Of a stretch of 64,000 nt of DNA, positions 2,910 to 51,591 are shown piece after piece. The position numbers and the translations under genes are program-made. Every line of letters begins with the position of its first letter. Position 1 is the first letter of the stretch. The notes under the pieces are model-generated. The model was not told the DNA's origin. It made no database searches and saw only the letters and a list, made by a program, of their open reading frames with translations. Source of the stretch: an uncultured Anaerolineales bacterium (lineage in GTDB: Bacteria > Chloroflexota > Anaerolineae > B4-G1); assembly GCA_964542755.1 (NCBI GenBank), contig CAZIWL010000005.1, positions 12,439 through 76,438 on the forward strand. The letters are read 5' to 3'.

Positions 2910-3321
2910 ATGAACGGTCTCACCATCCAGTATCCCGACGAGGTGCCTCTCCCCGGAGCGTTTCTGCGTCTTGCCCTTCCACGTCTTCGATCCGGAGACG
3001 GGCAAATCGCGCTGCGTGGCCTGCGAGATGTGTCCTCGAGGATGCCCACCGTAGTGCAGTTGGATCAAGCCGGGAAAGGAGCCGGAGCCCGTGGGGGAGG
3101 CTGGGGCGCCCAGTGAGTTCTTCATCGACAGCGGGATCTATGTGTCGTGCGGGCTGTGCGCTAAGGTCTGTCCCTTCGATGCCATTATGATGGATCATGA
3201 CAATGAGGTCGCTCCCTACGAACGGTATGAGAGCTCCATCTGGGGTGTGGATAAGCTATCCAGACCTCATTCGTGCGGCGTTCAACGCCACCTCTCTGGC
3301 TATCCAGAAGGGGCCTTCTGA
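2910..3321 (+). pseudogene. NuoI/EchF-like 2x[4Fe-4S] ferredoxin subunit, disrupted (frameshift near 2955 in a CCCC run, in-frame TAG at 3052-3054)
   Basis: Frame 0 gives IQYPDEVPLPGAF (NuoI YPEEPVYLPP region). Frame +1 continues RFCVLPFHVFDPETGKSRCVACEMCPRGCPP-TAG-CSWIKPGKEPEP..EFFIDSGIYVSCGLCAKVCPFDAIMM. This matches both CxxCxxCxxxCP motifs of NuoI-type subunits. Confidence 0.55.
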
Positions 3322-5413: not shown

Positions 5414-6877
5414 ATGGTCAGGAGTATCGAGGGGCCCGGAAAGGGCCTGGTCGGGGGACAGTACAAGCCGTTGACCGATGCCGAGGTGACGCGGATTCAC
5501 GAGGCATCGCTGGAAGTCCTGGAGCGGACCGGCGTGAACGTCCAGGAAGCGGAGGCGCTGGCACTCTTCAAAGAGGCTGGGGCGGACGTGCATGGAGACC
5601 GTGTCCGCCTTTCCAGGGCCATGGTCGAGGACGCCATCGCCACGGCGTCGTCCAAGGTGGTCTTGGCGGGCCGCGACCCGGACAATGACCTGATTCTGGA
5701 GGACGCACGGGTTCACATCGGGACGGGAGGTGCTGCTCTCCAGGTGCTGGATCTGGAGACGGGTACAATTCGAAAGGCGCTCTTGAGTGATGTCGGGGAT
5801 ATGGCGCGTATCGTGGATGCCCTGGACAATATCCACTTCTACCTCATCCCGATCTATCCCACCGATCTACCTGAAGAACAGGTGGAGATCAGCAAATACT
5901 ACGCTTCTCTGGCCAATACGACGAAGCACGTCCAGGCGGGAGTTTACACACTGCGGGGCATCCGCGATGTCGTGGCGATGTGTGAGAGGATCGCCGGCAG
6001 TCCGGAGGCCCTCCGTGCCCGGCCGCTCGTCTCGTTCATCACCAGCTGGATGGTCAGCCCGCTGAAGTTCGCCACCGACGTGACCACACTTCTCATTGAA
6101 GTCTGTCGCCAGGGTATACCCGTCGTCCTGTCGGCGGCCCCGATGGCTGGTTCGACGTCACCCGTGACGCTCGCGGGGACGTTGGTTCAGCTGAACGCCG
6201 AGCAGTTATCTGGCCTCACGTTGACACAGCTCGTCAATCCGGGGACGCCGGTCATCATGGGGCCGATCCCTGCGACGGCGGACATGCGGAGTGGAAAGTA
6301 CCTGGGTGGCTCCGTGGAGCTGGGTATCGGTAACGCGGCTATCACCCAGCTCGCTCACCGGTACGAAGTGCCCATCTACAATAGTGCCGGTATGACCGAC
6401 AGCAAGCTTCCGGATATTCAGGCCGGGATGGAGAAGGCTCAATCGGCGATTCAGGTTGCCCTTGCCGGTGCCAATTTCATCCACCACGCCGCGGGGATGC
6501 TCGAGGACATGTCTACCATCGCCTATGAGCAGTTCGTCATCGACAACGAGATGTTGGGGATGGCGATGCGCGCCGTACGCGGCATTGAGGTCGATGACGA
6601 TACGCTCGCTGTCGAGGCCATCGACCGGGTGGGCCCCGGGGGGCACTACCTGGCGGACGAGCATACGATGCGCTACATGCGCACTGAGCACTACTACCCG
6701 TCCCGAGTCTTTGACCGGCAGGGCCGTGACGAATGGGAGGACGACGGATCGACCGACGCGTGGCTCCGGGCCAGAGAGCTGGCTCGGGAGATCTTGCGTA
6801 AGCACGAACCGGAACTCCTGGATGGCGAGGCCGATGCCTGGATCAAGGAACAGTTCGCCCACACGCTGACCCTGTGA
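5414..6877 (+). CDS. MttB-superfamily methyltransferase (non-pyrrolysine; glycine betaine/quaternary amine methyltransferase-like)
   Basis: 487 aa, full-length MttB-like TIM barrel with no in-frame TAG. GGAGGG RBS. Confidence 0.85.
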   Translation: MVRSIEGPGKGLVGGQYKPLTDAEVTRIHEASLEVLERTGVNVQEAEALALFKEAGADVHGDRVRLSRAMVEDAIATASSKVVLAGRDPDNDLILEDARVHIGTGGAALQVLDLETGTIRKALLSDVGDMARIVDALDNIHFYLIPIYPTDLPEEQVEISKYYASLANTTKHVQAGVYTLRGIRDVVAMCERIAGSPEALRARPLVSFITSWMVSPLKFATDVTTLLIEVCRQGIPVVLSAAPMAGSTSPVTLAGTLVQLNAEQLSGLTLTQLVNPGTPVIMGPIPATADMRSGKYLGGSVELGIGNAAITQLAHRYEVPIYNSAGMTDSKLPDIQAGMEKAQSAIQVALAGANFIHHAAGMLEDMSTIAYEQFVIDNEMLGMAMRAVRGIEVDDDTLAVEAIDRVGPGGHYLADEHTMRYMRTEHYYPSRVFDRQGRDEWEDDGSTDAWLRARELAREILRKHEPELLDGEADAWIKEQFAHTLTL

Positions 6878-9771: not shown

Positions 9772-10124
9772 GAGGTGGCCGAAGATGGGCAGCTTGGTTG
9801 CCTTGGCGACCGCGAAGCGTGTGGGAAAGATCCGTTTCAGGAGTTGTACCAGCCAGAGCGGATTAGCGATTTCTATGTCTCCGCGGGTGCCTTCGACGCG
9901 AAACCGCCTCTCTCGTTGTCACCCTGATCAACTGCCTCTCTCGTCTCATCATGCACCGGGGAGTCTGCCGCCCACAGCCGCAGCTGGCCGGCGACCACGC
10001 CGGACCATAGTATACTCCTTTGACTCCAGATCACAACCGGTGAGACCGGGCGCTCTGGGGCTGCCCGGACCATTCGTTGGTGCTCAACAGACCGAGGCTT
10101 ACCAGCGCGTTGTATCGCGTGCGT

Positions 10125-10288
10125 GGCTGTGACAACGAGTGGTCGCCCCGCCCGGTGCGATACACCTTCCAGGTGCGTTGCACCTCACGAGCGTATGCTT
10201 GCCTCGTATGCCAGTCAAAACAGGTCAGTACACGGGGGCCAACGGGCTCCAAGCAGCGACCATCTCCGCGACAAGTCGTTAGCGCACC
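10125..10288. repeat. MITE-like interspersed element, copy A (about 165 bp, terminal inverted repeats, internal GGTGC-N3-GCACC palindromes)
   Basis: Shares the core ccggtgcgatRcaccttccaggtgcgttgcacctcacgagcgtatgcttgcc...gcgacaagtcgttagcgcacc with copies at 11211, 25264 and 50703. Confidence 0.8.
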
Positions 10289-10403
10289 CCCCGTGAAAGC
10301 GGCGGCTTGACGAAACGGGGCCTTCGCGTTAGAATACCGCGCGCGGGCAGGATACGCTTCCTGCCCGTTTGTTGAGCAAGACGGTATTCAGGAGGAGTGT
10401 AGT

Positions 10404-11210: not shown

Positions 11211-11290
11211 GGTGCACGAACGAGTGACCGCCCCTCCCGGTGCGATGCTCCTTCCAGGTGCGTTGCACCTCACGAGCGCATGCTTGCCAC
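11211..11290. repeat. MITE-like element, truncated copy B (5-prime half only)
   Basis: ggtgcacgaacgagtgaccgcccctcccggtgcgatgctccttccaggtgcgttgcacctcacgagcgcatgcttgcc. Similarity to the family ends about 11290. Confidence 0.7.
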
Positions 11291-11339
11291 ATCTCGCCGT
11301 AAACTTGAAATGCACCCGCTCCGATCCGAGAGGGATGGC

Positions 11340-11368
11340 TTGACAGTGCCCCGCTTACCGTATAGAAT
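11340..11368 (+). promoter_or_regulatory. Sigma70-like promoter for the dnaJ-like gene (TTGACA-17-TAGAAT)
   Basis: cTTGACAgtgccccgcttaccgtaTAGAATga. The -35 element is at 11340-11345 and the -10 at 11363-11368. Confidence 0.5.
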
Positions 11369-18618: not shown

Positions 18619-21210
18619 ATGAATCTAAACAAGTTCACGCAGAAAGCACAAGAAGCTGTGATGGAGGCACAGTCGCTGGCGGGCAAGTACAGCCACAGCC
18701 AGATCGAACCCGGGCATCTCCTGCTGGCGCTTCTGCGGCAGGCGGACGGCATCGTCCCACAGGTCGTCCAGAAGCTCGAGGCGAATCCGGGGGAGATGGC
18801 CCTGTCCCTTGAGGGCGAACTGAAGAAGCGGCCGAGGATTCGTGGCGCGGCAGCCCAGGTGGGCATGTCGCGGCAGCTCGGACGTGTACTGGAAGAGGCC
18901 CAGGAGACGGCTCAACGCATGCGCGACGAGTACGCGAGCACGGAGCACCTGCTGCTGGCTCTGACCGGCACCCAGGGGGGTGATGCTGCGCGTTTCCTCT
19001 CAGCTCATGGCGTCACGGAGGACGCTGTTCTCAGGGCACTGACCGCCATCCGGGGCAACCAGCGTGTCACCAGTCAGAATCCCGAGGCGACGTACCAGGC
19101 CCTGGAGAAGTACGGTCGCGATCTAACGGAGCTGGCCCGTGATGGCAAGCTGGATCCTGTCATTGGGCGCGACGAGGAGATTCGCCGCGTGATGCGCATC
19201 CTGAACCGCCGTACCAAGAACAATCCCGTCTTGGTTGGCGAGGCAGGTGTGGGCAAGACAGCGATCGCCGAGGGCCTGGCCCAGCGCATCGCCCACGGCG
19301 ATGTTCCCGAGGGGCTGAAGAACAAGCGCATTGTCGAGCTCGATATGGGGGCTTTGGTCGCTGGCGCTAAGTTCCGAGGTGAGTTCGAGGAACGGCTCAA
19401 GGCGGTGCTCAAAGAGGTTACCGAAGCGGCCGGTCAGGTCATCCTGTTCATCGACGAGCTCCACACCGTTGTAGGGGCTGGCGCGGCGGAGGGTGCCGTC
19501 GACGCGGGCAACATGCTCAAGCCGAAGCTCGCACGCGGTGAGTTGCACGCCATTGGTGCGACGACCTTGAACGAGTACCGGAAGTACATTGAGAAGGATG
19601 CGGCCCTTGAGCGACGCTTCCAGCCCGTCTTTATTGCCGAGCCGGGGGTCGAGGATACCGTCAGCATACTCCGCGGGCTCAAGGAGCGGTATGAGGTCCA
19701 CCACGGCGTGCGCATCAAGGACTCGGCCTGCATCTCGGCGGCCACGCTTAGTGATCGGTACATCGCAGACCGTCAGCTCCCAGACAAGGCCATCGACCTC
19801 ATCGACGAGGCTGCCTCACGCCTGCGCATGGAGATTGACTCCAAGCCGTCCGAGCTAGATGAAGTGGATCGACAGATCATGCAGTTGGAGATTGAGCGCG
19901 AGGCCCTCAAGAAGGAGAGCGACACGGCCAGCCGTGACCGGCTCGAGGACCTGGAGAGAGAGCTGGCTGACCTGGAGGAGACGCGGAAGGCCCTGCGCGC
20001 GCAGTGGGAGCAGGAGAAGAGTGCCATCCAAGCGGTCCAGCAGACGAAGGAGCAGATGGATCGAGTCCGTCATCGTATCCAGGAGGCCCAACGGACGCAC
20101 GACTACGAACAGGCATCGGAACTCCAGTACGGTCGACTTTCGGAGCTGCAGCGGCAGCTTGAGGCTCAAGAGGAGCGGCTCAACGAGCTCCAAGAAGGTG
20201 GTGCTATGCTCAAGGAGGAGGTCGGCTCAGAGGAGATCGCCGAGGTCGTCTCTGAATGGACAAGCATCCCCGTCGCCAAGCTCCTTGAGGGAGAGCGAGA
20301 GCGTTTGCTCCGCATGGAGGAGGCTCTCCACCGCCAGGTTGTGGGACAGGAGGAGGCCGTCGAGGCCGTCTCAAACGCCGTGCGACGGGCCCGCGCCGGT
20401 CTGCAGGATCCCAACCGGCCCATCGGGACCTTCATCTTCCTCGGTCCAACGGGAGTCGGCAAGACCGAGCTGGCCAGGGCTCTGGCCCAATTTCTCTTCG
20501 ACACGGAAGAGGCCATGATTCGCATCGACATGAGCGAGTACCAGGAGCGGCATACTGTCTCCCGCTTGATCGGTGCCCCTCCCGGGTACGTAGGCTATGA
20601 GGAGGCCGGTCAGCTCACTGAGGCCGTTCGACGCCGTCCCTACAGCGTGGTCCTTTTTGACGAGATCGAGAAGGCCCACCCGGAGGTCTTCAACACCCTC
20701 CTCCAGCTGTTGGACGAGGGCCGTCTGACCGATGGGCAGGGGCGGACGGTGGACTTCCGGAACACGATCATCATCATGACGAGCAACGTCGGCAGCCGCT
20801 GGATCAAGGACAAGGGTGTCGATGAGGCGCGAGACAAGGTGATGGAGGAGCTCGATCGCATCTTCCGTCCCGAGTTCCTCAACCGCATCGACGAGATCAT
20901 TCTCTTCCGCAGCCTCACCAAGGAGGACTTGCGAAGGATCGTCGACATCCAGATGCGCCATCTGCGTCGTCTGCTCGACGAGCGGAAGATGGACTTGCAG
21001 ATGACGGATGAAGCACGGCGTCATCTGGCCGAGGTCGGCTACGATCCGGTCTACGGTGCCCGTCCACTCAAGCGCGTCATCCAGCGGCAGGTGCAGGATC
21101 CGCTGGCCCTGTCGCTCCTCCGGGGAGAGTTCGACGAGGGCGACACCGTACGGCTGGAGGCACCTAACGGGCGCATTACGTTCAAGAAGGCCGAGGCTGC
21201 TTCGGCTTGA
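18619..21210 (+). CDS. clpB: Chaperone ClpB (Hsp100 disaggregase)
   Basis: Two AAA+ modules with Walker A/B. Long coiled-coil middle domain (about 130 aa). Clp N domain. Confidence 0.9.
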
Positions 21211-21515: not shown

Positions 21516-24017
21516 ATGATGAGGTTAGACCGTTTCACTGAGCGGGCGCAGGCGGCGGCCCAGCGGGCCGTCCAGATCATGGGGCGCTATGGACACACGC
21601 AGGTGGACACGGAACATATCTTCCTGGCGCTCCTGGAGCAACCTCAAGGCGCCATCTCCGACCTGATGGAACAGCTCGGCGCCGATACCGAGCAGGTCGA
21701 GAAGAAGCTCGACGAGGCACTGCAGGACAGTGCCAAGGCCAACGTCTACGGCGGCGGGGGCATGGGGCAGGTATTCATCACCCCGCGCGTGAAGCGCGTG
21801 TTGGACCGCGCGAACGCCGAGGCGAATCGGCTCAATGATGACTATATCTCCACCGAGCACATCTTCTTGGCCATCGCGAGCGAGAGGGACACGCTGCCCG
21901 CCCGCATCCTTCGAGAGCAGGGCATCTCCAAGCAACGGATCTACGAGGCCATCAAGGAGCTGCGGGGTGGCAAGCGAGTCACCGATCGACGAGCTGAGAC
22001 CCACTATCGGGTTCTGGAGAAATACAGCCGAAACCTGACCCAGATGGCGCACGAGGGGAAGCTTGACCCCGTTATCGCCAGGGATGATGAGATCCTCCGT
22101 TTGATCCAGATCCTCTGCCGCCGCACTAAGAACAACCCGGTCCTTATCGGTGAACCCGGAGTGGGCAAGACTGCCATCGCCGAGGGTCTGGCCCAGAAGG
22201 TCGCCGAAGGGGATGTCCCCGAGATTCTGATGGGGCGGGAGGTTGCCCAGTTGGATCTAGCATCAATGGTGGCCGGGACTCACTTCCGCGGCGAGTTCGA
22301 GGAGCGGCTGAAAGCGACCATCGAGGAGATCCAGAGTTCTGAAGGAGATATCATCCTCTTCATCGATGAGCTTCACAACGTGGTGGGGGCTGGGGCCGGC
22401 ATGGGGGCGCTCGATGCCTCAAACATGATGAAACCAGCGCTGGCTCGCGGTGAACTCCAGTGTATCGGGGCGACCACGCTCGATGAATATCGTCAATACA
22501 TTGAGCAGGATGGTGCCCTGGAGCGGCGATTTGCCCCCATCTTCGTCGATGAGCCAACAGTCGAGAAGGCTGTGGTCATGCTCGAGGGGCTGCGGGACCG
22601 ATATGAGGCACACCACAAGGTTCACATATCGGATCAAGCGATTCAGGCGGCTGCTCACCTCTCGCACCGCTACGTCACGGACCGCCGCCTTCCTGATAAG
22701 GCTATCGACCTGATGGACGAGGCCGCGGCCAAACTGCGCGTTGCCCTCCACACCCTCCCTCCGGAGTTGAAGGAGATGCACATTGAGCTCCAGCGCCTCC
22801 AGACGGAGATCGACGCGGCCAGCAATATGGAGGATTACCAGCGGGCGGCCGAGTTGAAGACCGAGCGCATCAACCTTCAGGCTGAGTTCAACCTGCAGCG
22901 CGAGATATGGCAGCAGGAGAATCAGCTGGACGAGACCATTGAGGAGAAGGACATCGCGGAGGTCATAGCCAAGTGGACCGGCATTCCTGTGGCGCGCATG
23001 CTGGAGACGGAGTCGGACAAGCTGCTCCGGATGGAGGATGCGATCCACGAGCGCATTATCGGACAGGAGGAGGGCGTCGCCGCGGTCTCCGATGCCATCC
23101 GGCGCGCCCGGTCCGGGTTGAAGGATCCCAGCCGTCCTATCGGCAGCTTCATCTTCCTCGGCTCGTCGGGTGTGGGGAAGACAGAGCTGGCCAAGGCGCT
23201 GGCATGGTTCCTCTTCGACGACGAGGATGCCCTGGTTCGCATCGACATGAGTGAGTATCGGGAGCGGCACACTGTCTCGCGCCTCTTTGGTGCGCCTCCG
23301 GGATACATCGGTCACGAGCGCGGCGGCCAGTTGACCGAGGCGGTTCGCCGCCGACCTTATCGGGTTGTCCTCTTTGATGAGATCGAGAAGGCCCACCCGG
23401 ACGTGTGGAACGCGCTTCTTCAGATTCTGGACGAGGGGCGGCTCACTGATGGTCAGGGTCGCATCGTGAACTTCCGGAATACCGTCGTGATCATGACGTC
23501 CAACGTCGGGACCTCGTTTGCTCATGAGGGTGGCACGCTAGGCTTCATGCGCTCCGAGGAGGACGGGCAAGGTGGCACGGTGAATCAGGAGCGCATCAAG
23601 CGCGAGCTCAAGGACACCTTCCGACCGGAGTTCCTCAACCGCATCGACGAGGTCATCGTCTTCAACAACCTGACGGTGGAGGACATGGAGAGCATCGTCG
23701 ACCTTCAGATGGCTGAGGTATCGGATCGACTCTCCGACGTGGGTCTGCAGGTCCGGCTGACTGACTTGAGCCGACGGTGGCTGGCGCGGAAGGGTTTCGA
23801 TCCTCAGTTTGGAGCCCGACCTCTTCGCCGTGCTCTCCAGCGGCACGTGGAGAGCCCTCTCAGCGTCAAGCTCCTACGGGGGGACTTCGAGCGCGGAGAC
23901 ATCGTGGTCGTCGACGTGGCGGACGATGATCTCATCTTCCAGACCAGCACTGAGTGGACGGAGCTGAGCGAGAAGACCAGGGAGCCCGTCGCCGGAGAGG
24001 TGAGCGTCGAGTCGTAG
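21516..24017 (+). CDS. clpC: ClpC/ClpA-type AAA+ ATPase (Hsp100 with short linker)
   Basis: 833 aa. Two N-domain repeats, two AAA+ modules, a short UVR-like linker ([25 protein letters not shown]) instead of the long ClpB M-domain. Confidence 0.85.
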
Positions 24018-25061: not shown

Positions 25062-25263
25062 TGCTGTTTGCCCTCCATTCTGCTGCTGCGACACGCGGAT
25101 GAGGCTGAAACGCGTTCTAATGCCGATACTCGGGGTCGTTCGTTGGTTAAGCTCCCGCGCCAAGTTTCTTCGTCCACGCACTCTCCACCGCAAGAAAGCT
25201 TGATGCTGGACAAGTCCATTATACGTCTGAGGCAAGCCCACGTCAATCGGGCGCCCGCCGCGC

Positions 25264-25427
25264 GGTGCACTAACGACTTGTCGCCCACACCCGGTGCGAT
25301 GCACCTTCTAGGTGCGTTGCACCTCACGAGAGTATGCTTGCCACGTATGCCAGTCACGACTGATCAGTGCACGGGCGCCAACGGTTTCCAATCGGCGACC
25401 AGCTCCGCGACAAGTTGTTAGTGCACC
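25264..25427. repeat. MITE-like element, full copy C, with 21-bp terminal inverted repeats
   Basis: Left end ggtgcactaacgacttgtcgc. Right end gcgacaagttgttagtgcacc. Internal ggtgcgatgcacc and ggtgcgttgcacc palindromes. Confidence 0.8.
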
Positions 25428-25455
25428 CCCTGCCGCGCTCTGAGGGTGAAATTGT

Positions 25456-50586: not shown

Positions 50587-50702
50587 ACGGACGGGAGCGC
50601 TGGCGACTGTTAGATCCAGTCGGGCGCGGAGCGTTCCTATCCTGCCATCAGCACCCTGTTATCCTTCCCGGTGAGAAGGGCTTCGGTGCGGCGTCGAGCG
50701 TG

Positions 50703-50842
50703 GGTGCACGAACGAGTTGTCGCCCCGACCGGTGCGATGCACCGAGCGTATGTCTGCCTCGTATGCCAGTCACAAGGGGTCAGTACACTGGCGCCAAGGG
50801 CCTCCAACCATCGACGATCTCCGCGACAAGTCGTTAGCGCAT
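50703..50842. repeat. MITE-like element copy D (internally deleted, about 140 bp)
   Basis: Left end ggtgcacgaacgagttgtcgcc. Right end gcgacaagtcgttagcgcatcc. Lacks the 22-bp ttccaggtgcgttgcacctcac segment between gcacc repeats. Confidence 0.75.
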
Positions 50843-50904
50843 CCGTCGAGCGTGATAGGCTTGCGCACCCGCCTCCTCTATGATACAACATCGACGGGAG
50901 AGCC

Positions 50905-51591
50905 ATGCAAGGACTGATTCTCGTCGTGGACGACCAACCGAAGATCGTCAAGCAGGCCCGTGACTATCTCGAGAAGGCGGGCTTTCAGGTCGTTGGGGCA
51001 GCCGATGGGCAGATGTCGCTGGATCTGGCACGCCGTGAGCGGCCCGATCTGATCGTACTCGATCTCAACCTGCCAGGTATAGACGGACTCGATGTCTGCC
51101 GGGCTCTTCGGCGGCAGTCCGATGTGCCGATCATCATGCTCACCGCGCGGGTTGGCGAAGCTGATAGGCTCATCGGATTGGAGCTTGGCGCCGACGACTA
51201 CATCACCAAGCCTTTTTCCCCTCGTGAGCTGGTCGCTCGGGTGCGGGCTGTGCTCCGCCGCGTCCGCGGCGGTGTCCACCGCCCCGGGGTTATCCGGGCT
51301 GGGGACTTGGAGATCGATATACCGGGTCACCGGGTCACTGTCGAGGGGGAGCCCTGTCACCTGACGCGTACCGAGTTTGATCTCCTGGAGGCGCTGGCTC
51401 AGAGTCCCGGTCAAGCCTTCACCAGGGAGCAGCTTCTCGATCGGCTCCACGGTGTGGCCTACGATGGCTATGATCGGAGCATCGATGCGCACATCAAGAA
51501 CCTGCGTCAGAAGATCGAGCCTGATCCATCGGAGCCTCGCTACATCGTCACCGTTTATGGCGTGGGCTACCGGTTTACCGATGAACTCTAA
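50905..51591 (+). CDS. OmpR-family response regulator
   Basis: Receiver domain plus winged-helix output. Confidence 0.85.
   Translation: MQGLILVVDDQPKIVKQARDYLEKAGFQVVGAADGQMSLDLARRERPDLIVLDLNLPGIDGLDVCRALRRQSDVPIIMLTARVGEADRLIGLELGADDYITKPFSPRELVARVRAVLRRVRGGVHRPGVIRAGDLEIDIPGHRVTVEGEPCHLTRTEFDLLEALAQSPGQAFTREQLLDRLHGVAYDGYDRSIDAHIKNLRQKIEPDPSEPRYIVTVYGVGYRFTDEL

Follow-up and report, generated by a model that had tools for sequence, protein, structure and literature searches.

The four related repeats carried by the 64-kb window (the whole stretch of DNA analysed here, from an uncultured member of the Anaerolineae, Chloroflexota) are very probably copies of a MITE whose ends are those of insertion sequences (IS) of the Anaerolineae ISKra4 group (p-MULT 4, a group of prokaryotic Mutator-like transposases), and which have been placed upstream of promoters. 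The terminal inverted repeats (TIRs) of the element are identical to those of such IS, insertion duplicates 9 bp of the target, the elements stand at a fixed distance from predicted promoters, and orthologous sites are empty in relatives. The first-pass annotation had proposed a MITE-like family and had suggested a search for further copies, target-site duplications and an autonomous partner. All three were found: further insertion sites are present in metagenome contigs, the duplications are 9 bp long, and IS with matching TIRs occur in other Anaerolineae MAGs. The MITE reading is supported by each of these results.

The repeats of the window and their relatives

All four segments that had been reported are present, and all are read on the + strand. 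The window contains three full copies (A, C and D) and one 5' fragment (B), which are 82-90% alike. Their positions, parts and settings are as follows.

10125..10289, + strand: full-length MITE copy A (165 bp), with a divergent Fe-S protein gene on one side and rplY (L25) on the other
10268-10289: intact 3' TIR of copy A, whose 5' TIR is degenerate (more than 3 mismatches to the TIR consensus)
10154-10166 (imperfect) and 10172-10184: palindromes of copy A
11211..11293, + strand: MITE copy B, a 5' half with the 5' TIR and both palindromes, between the rplY terminator and a dnaJ-like gene
25263..25428, + strand: MITE copy C, the best preserved of the window copies, flanked by the stop of a zinc-ribbon gene and by the start of degV (each gene on the minus strand)
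25264-25284 and 25407-25427: TIRs of copy C, 20/21 complementary
25293-25305 and 25311-25323: twin perfect palindromes of copy C
50702..50844, + strand: MITE copy D, 143 bp, of the one-palindrome short subfamily, lying between genes for a methyltransferase and for a response regulator (ATG of the latter at 50905)
50703-50723 and 50823-50843: TIRs of copy D

By BLASTN, copy A is 85.8% identical to C over 169 nt (E 9e-47), 87.9% identical to D over 99 nt, and 89.6% identical to B over 77 nt. The identity of more than 85% claimed at first is therefore correct for these three pairs, but C and D are only 80-82% identical. Five matches to the TIR consensus at no more than 3 mismatches are found in the window, against 0.02 expected by chance. 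TIRs had been attributed to all of the copies; C and D do have them, whereas B lacks the 3' TIR and the 5' TIR of A has degenerated. The 3' half of B has been lost or has decayed, with faint similarity that possibly continues to ~11316. Two perfect palindromes had likewise been ascribed to every copy, a description that fits C alone; A has GGTGCGATACACC, B has GGTGCGATGCTCC, and D has a single palindrome. The limits first drawn for the element were one base too narrow, and with its terminal bases it spans GGGTGCAC...GCGCACCC. The earlier statement that the copies are intergenic and adjoin gene starts is confirmed for all four. A segmental duplication including flanking genes, which had been named as the finding that would speak against a mobile element, is ruled out because the DNA flanking the copies is unrelated, with no similarity from one copy to the next.

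The element is non-coding and 143-165 bp long, with TIRs of ~21 bp; the ORFs present in it are spurious and overlapping. Its internal palindromes, GGTGC-GAT-GCACC and GGTGC-GTT-GCACC, reproduce the first five bases of both tips (GGTGC...GCACC) placed head to head, and the two palindromes jointly make up one 14-bp hairpin (window 25293-25323 and 10154-10184). Within the interior, the palindromes GGTGCGATGCACC and GGTGCGTTGCACC belong to the better conserved segments. A 146-bp subfamily, 18 bp shorter through a loss between two GCACC repeats, occupies at least 8 independent sites. Copy D had been taken for the product of a local internal deletion; 18 bp of that deletion are in fact subfamily-wide, while an extra loss of 4 bp does set D apart from the 146-bp form and is polymorphic between strains. 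In two ENA assemblies (L078/L082), copy D has 4 bp more than in the window, at 50742-50746 (144 versus 140 matched bases), a small indel polymorphism in a MITE that is fixed. Since the one-palindrome subfamily has also transposed, the twin palindromes are dispensable.

Outside the window, a scan of JGI metagenome contigs with the 3' TIR gave 47 loci. As these loci were gathered by exact match to the 3' TIR, the conservation of that end is inflated. An nhmmer search of the metagenome contigs, with a profile made from A, C and D and matches de-duplicated on their flanks, left 24 distinct insertion sites, of which 20 have a full-length element; some 20 sites are thereby added to those of the window. 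The mean pairwise identity of the copies is 82% (range 71-90%), with none above 90%. Copies A, C and D each have nearer kin outside the window than within it, which means that several sublineages have spread. Copies A, B and D, those that were checked, are present at their sites in every recovered contig of this population; for D, no presence/absence polymorphism was seen among the 12 contigs that carry the neighbouring response regulator, all 12 of which contain the element. The mean identity of 82%, the lack of any pair above 90%, and the presence of A, B and D in every contig recovered together indicate that the copies are old.

The host is an uncultured member of the Anaerolineae: its ClpC-type ATPase has proteins of Anaerolineae MAGs as its closest named homologues (85-89% identity), and contigs of its population recur in several ENA and JGI metagenomes. 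Two other features of the window were encountered on the way. The sole match at the Rfam gathering score is PYLIS_3 (pyrrolysine insertion sequence, mttB), at 6392-6491 on the + strand (49.1 bits, cutoff 38); it falls within the first of two adjacent MttB-family genes, for which the gene callers give uninterrupted products of 487 and 484 aa. Positions 20306-20955 and 23023-23711 are direct repeats with 75-78% identity (families D1 and D5). These repeats lie within two adjacent genes for Clp-type AAA+ ATPases (849/863 aa and 833 aa), and so represent tandem paralogues.

Insertion sites: duplications, empty sites and promoters

The 9 bp on either side of the element agree at 7 or more of 9 positions in 15 of 20 sites, as compared with 0.4% of shifted controls, and the agreement is perfect at 7 sites. 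In the window, duplications flank two of the copies.

25254..25262 (left, CCCGCCGCG) and 25429-25437 (right, CCTGCCGCG): target-site duplication of copy C, 8/9
50693..50701 (left) and 50845-50853 (right): target-site duplication of copy D, GTCGAGCGT, 9/9

The corresponding flanks of copy A (10116-10124 and 10290-10298) agree at only 5/9. A 10-bp duplication was considered and rejected: the base beside the 5' TIR is G at 16 of the 20 sites, and the tenth right-hand base varies. A 9-bp duplication around an element with terminal G...C is preferred because it fits better and also agrees with the published family.

Unoccupied sites are found in close relatives. In three of these (L092, L093 and L094), whose ClpC is 95%, 92% and 91% identical to that of the window, the order of ClpC, degV and the zinc-ribbon gene is the same, and the degV promoter is kept while the element is absent. 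The degV spacer measures 221-228 bp in the three relatives, with no TIR-like sequence, versus ~395 bp in the window. When copy C and one copy of its duplication are removed from the window, the alignment with the empty site of L092 is nearly gap-free across the junction. At rplY, a further relative (L090/L091), whose L25 belongs to the same 90%-identity cluster, keeps the promoter and the leader and has no element upstream. There, similarity to the window picks up again a few bases ahead of the -35 box; since the relative's DNA beyond this point has diverged, a clean single-copy empty site cannot be drawn for A.

At the dnaJ promoter, the same relative contains a 387-bp variant of the element (2929-3315), made of a normal 5' TIR, ~240 bp of unrelated DNA and the 3' two-thirds of the family-1 element, that is, of the family found in the window. 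Its 3' end is intact, with 16 nt after ...GCACCC and then TTGACA. This variant could be a longer ancestor, or else a copy that has captured DNA. Because its intact 3' end lies at the dnaJ promoter, copy B of the window can be understood as a decayed remnant at the same promoter.

The promoters considered here are consensus predictions of the sigma-70 type (-35/-10). To describe their distance from the elements, 88 distinct ends of IS and MITEs were read outward, with offsets counted from the GGTGCAC tip. Within 60 nt of these ends, 24 of 32 occurrences of TTGAC lie at offset 16-18, and TAnnnT is most frequent at offset 39-41. The best -35/-10 match begins at offset 16-18 in 29 of the 39 ends with a predicted promoter, where chance would give ~4 (about 29 offsets being possible). 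Counted from the true terminal base, the gap to the -35 hexamer is 15-17 nt. Among the full family-1 sites, 12 of 20 have a promoter match of at least 9/12 at offset 17-18, and one more site has such a match at offset 13; these 13 promoters are found 10 times at the 3' end and 3 times at the 5' end, a 10:3 bias that is not significant. In about one third of the family-1 sites, a promoter is recognisable at neither end. In the window, a separate scan placed the promoters beside A, B and C.

10307..10335, + strand: predicted rplY (L25) promoter, TTGACG-17-TAGAAT, with the -35 box starting 17 nt past the end of copy A
11340..11368, + strand: predicted dnaJ-like promoter, TTGACA-17-TAGAAT, downstream of copy B
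25218..25246, minus strand: predicted degV promoter, TTGACG-17-TATAAT, with 16 nt between its -35 box and the 5' end of copy C
50861..50866, + strand: -35-like TTGCGC, 16 nt past copy D and upstream of the response-regulator gene

For copy D, no canonical -10 box follows at 16-18 nt from TTGCGC, and the promoter scan found none there. The idea that the element always has one orientation towards the downstream gene was dropped, as copy C meets its promoter with the 5' end. The first-pass annotation had suggested that the copies might supply or disrupt promoters. This part of it is not upheld: the -35 boxes are intact, pre-existing, and stand 15-17 nt downstream of the elements. The elements are probably at that position because it is the one targeted by ISKra4-group transposases (Guerillot et al., 2014; PMC3942029).

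Insertion sequences with the same ends

A strict 3' TIR pattern had no match in the GTDB genomes, and a relaxed TIR pattern gave 24 loci there, nearly all in MAGs of Anaerolineae or other Chloroflexota. Two of the loci (L056 and L073) are complete IS of 1.49 kb with the same TIRs in inverted orientation. The left TIR of L073, GGTGCACTAACGAGTTGTCGC, is the MITE 5' consensus, and that of L056 is one base off (GGTGCGC). Each IS has a single ORF of 456 aa, with its stop codon inside the right TIR. The two ORFs score 294 and 288 bits on the NCBIfam model of the ISKra4 family transposase (NF033572, cutoff 205), and fall below the cutoff on the ISLre2 model (90-95 bits versus 200) and on the ISH6 model; the Pfam assignment is UPF0236. 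Membership of the ISLre2/TnGBS branch (p-MULT 3) was rejected on the ISLre2 score and on the occurrence of promoters at both ends of the elements. The L056-type transposase has more than 1,800 homologues at E no higher than 1e-20, mostly on contigs of ~1.5 kb, as is expected of an IS. No ISKra4 transposase gene lies within the 64-kb window.

No target-site duplication was seen at the complete IS of L056 and L073, which are on short, possibly chimeric metagenome contigs. A further IS (L062, ~226-1716) is flanked by a perfect 9-bp duplication, CTTGACGCG, which itself holds a -35-like motif. The IS of L056 (190-1685) has promoter-like sites 17 nt from each of its ends.

One metagenome contig, L024, carries both a family-1 MITE and an IS end with a perfect TIR, followed by an ATG 85 nt on; the contig stops 124 bp into the IS. 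This end appears to come from an IS copy of the same community. Stubs of this IS variant are found at contig ends only (L024, 11083-11206, and L077, 1-51, the latter from a Dehalococcoidales MAG). The left end of the stub variant is GGTGCACTAACGAGTTGTCGCGGA[T/C]CGACCGCGGATTGGCTAGAGATGATT, written GGTGCACTAACGAGTTGTCGCGGATCGACC... for the L024 type, and compared with the L056-type IS, its first 24 nt are the better match to the inner side of the 3' end of the MITE. The N-terminus of the L024-type IS product, MSFPTSAARSMTA, does not figure among the best 120 homologues, out of more than 1,800, of the L056 transposase. When the histidine kinase of L024 was used as bait for the IS, the exact protein was not recovered, and the best match was 51% identical, from a Chloroflexota MAG. 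The MITE and the recovered IS share nothing past ~21-25 nt, and the MITE is therefore no simple internal-deletion derivative of them.

Several other short elements have the same ends. A second MITE family (~155-220 bp), from metagenome Ga0207797, has the 3' TIR in common with the window family, a 5' TIR GGTGCACTAACAAGTTGTCAC, and an unrelated interior. It is often found at contig ends, at the loci listed here.

L014, L015, L018, L022, L023, L032, L033, L036, L041, L043, L048: loci of the second MITE family

At L041, direct repeats taken to be 10 bp long (CTTTGAGCTG) flank it. Ga0207797 also contains a close relative of the window organism (L091). In Anaerolineae MAGs there are a ~135-bp family with these TIRs and another interior (L068, L069 and L075) and a further short element with ISKra4-type TIRs (L066). 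Locus L074 is a ~100-bp element with the same TIRs and a GC-rich hairpin, and L059 (7856-7898) is a 43-bp element consisting of nothing but the two TIRs. Several of the short elements from MAGs stand 16-17 nt from CTTGACA. Families that have only their ends in common form a pattern typical of MITEs using one transposase. Exact 20-mer matches at L028, L050, L051, L053 and L034 come with no matching interior and no transposase, and were taken as chance or unrelated; L034 codes for a CAP12/Pycsar TIR-domain protein.

Origin of the copies and comparison with known systems

The element of the window has the features of a MITE: it is short and non-coding, it has TIRs and a fixed-length duplication, it is found at multiple loci with presence or absence between relatives, and its TIRs are common to an IS. 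From this we infer mobilisation in trans. The transposase of a full-length IS located elsewhere would bind the inverted repeats of the MITE, then excise or copy it, and the MITE would integrate 15-17 nt upstream of a sigma-70-type -35 hexamer, with duplication of 9 bp of target. A circular intermediate may be formed on the way, as reported for its relatives TnGBS and ISLre2 (PMC3942029). The promoter region would be recognised possibly via the transcription machinery, as was suggested by the authors of the 2014 study by analogy with Ty3 (PMC3942029). Because the two ends are nearly identical, either one may face the promoter. Insertion replaces the native DNA beyond ~-52 and does not touch the core promoter, in line with a "safe haven" strategy; with core promoter and gene left intact, insertions would be tolerated and become fixed. 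Targeting upstream of promoters would likewise explain why every copy is beside a gene start.

Other explanations account less well for these observations. It is extremely improbable that the element is a structured non-coding RNA or a cis-regulatory leader with a functional terminal stem and hairpins. Copy C does fold well on the + strand (-81.9 kcal/mol, z = -7.2), but its reverse strand folds nearly as well (z = -5.0), as is expected of any DNA inverted repeat. In an RNAalifold analysis of 20 copies, the covariation term is +0.35, compensatory change occurs in 1 of 26 pairs, and most changes break pairs. Rfam has no match on the element, the copies are upstream of promoters and not within 5' UTRs, C runs antisense to the gene next to it, and an RNA gene would explain neither the target-site duplications nor the IS-type ends. 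Very improbable as well is a model in which insertion is random and copies survive only in harmless spots upstream of promoters, so that selection and not targeting sets the pattern. Purifying selection does clear insertions from genes, and any old family becomes enriched in intergenic DNA. Yet selection would scatter the survivors over that DNA, and not keep them within +/-1 nt, as found at offsets 16-18 for 29/39 predicted promoters. Moreover, the same fixed distance has been documented for related transposases and, in observed transposition events, for TnGBS (as cited in PMC3942029).

Host co-option, with the palindromes acting as operators or the element taking the place of activator or UP-element DNA so as to tune promoters, is in our view highly unlikely. 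It would agree with the replacement of native DNA upstream of ~-52 of a promoter by every copy, with the retention of A, B and D (the copies checked) throughout the recovered contigs of the population, and with the better conservation of the palindromes within the interior. Against it, the one-palindrome subfamily has reached at least 8 sites, the neighbouring genes (for L25, a DnaJ-like protein, DegV and a response regulator) have no common function, these promoters serve relatives that have no element, and the conservation of the interior (mean 79% outside the 3' TIR) is no higher than shared ancestry predicts. A bolder proposal can be made, in which these are the first MITEs of promoter-targeting ISKra4/Mutator-like transposases, at least five unrelated interiors have been captured by one set of ends across uncultured Anaerolineae, and the elements serve as natural promoter tags, some of them co-opted with their palindromes as operators. 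Taken as a whole, we consider it unlikely.

If the repeats are MITE copies with ISKra4-group ends, as we favour, the upstream targeting of promoters by the transposases of ISKra4, ISLre2 and TnGBS extends to non-autonomous passengers, and several MITE families would ride on an ISKra4-type system in uncultured Anaerolineae. Element ends would then show, to the single base, where sigma-70-type promoters are likely to lie in genomes for which there are no transcript data, and the repeats would account for some of the contig breaks in these metagenomes. A repeat that had been unexplained, including its positions at gene starts, can thus be accounted for with no new mechanism.

Classical bacterial MITEs, such as Correia in Neisseria, RUP in Streptococcus pneumoniae and Nezha in cyanobacteria, are short and non-coding, have TIRs and a target duplication, are repeated at many intergenic places, and rely on an IS transposase for mobilisation in trans. 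Their subfamilies come from internal deletion, and the families derive from other IS families. Some of them bring their own promoter or terminator signals, unlike the window element, in which no such signal is evident. We know of no classical MITE family that stands at a fixed distance from promoters. REP/BIME repeats resemble the window family in being abundant, intergenic and hairpin-forming; they differ in being much shorter, in having neither IS-type TIRs nor duplications, and in being tied to RAYT (tyrosine-type) transposases.

The closest known systems are those of the prokaryotic Mutator-like transposases, as defined by Guerillot et al. (2014; PMC3942029). In that study, elements of TnGBS and ISLre2 were found 15-17 bp upstream of sigmaA promoters in one orientation, while for 13 ISKra4-group IS the distance was 13-17 bp and the sigmaA promoters were seen at either side, a two-sided pattern that the authors tie to near-perfect inverted repeats (PMC3942029). 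The p-MULT elements generate repeats of 8 or 9 bp, and p-MULT 4 occurs in Chloroflexi (PMC3942029). Among the entries of Table S1, those for the ISKra4-group members ISAcce1 and ISCasp2 give the ends ...ATGCACCC and ...CGCACCC, with DR 9 (PMC3942029). The term MITE is absent from this paper (PMC3942029). In the full-text literature, whose coverage is incomplete, no report was found of MITEs derived from ISKra4, ISLre2 or TnGBS, nor of MITEs in Chloroflexota, and the family is likely, though not certain, to be undescribed.

With the p-MULT 3 elements TnGBS and ISLre2, the window family has in common an insertion 15-17 bp upstream of promoters and a transposase of the Mutator-like type. Those elements differ in that they insert in one orientation, with the right repeat at the promoter, and are found mainly in Firmicutes, whereas the window family uses both ends. 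The ISKra4 group (p-MULT 4) is closer. Like it, the window element has ...GCACCC ends, a 9-bp duplication and near-perfect repeats of ~21 bp, and is found near -35 boxes with promoters at either end; both occur in Chloroflexota, and the IS with the TIRs of the window element have a transposase that scores above the NCBIfam ISKra4 cutoff, as in that group. Unlike ISKra4-group IS, the window element has no transposase, is 146-165 bp long, and has an interior that, apart from the TIRs, is unrelated to the IS copies recovered here. The IS group and its insertion preference were thus already known, and it is the MITE family belonging to it that is probably new.
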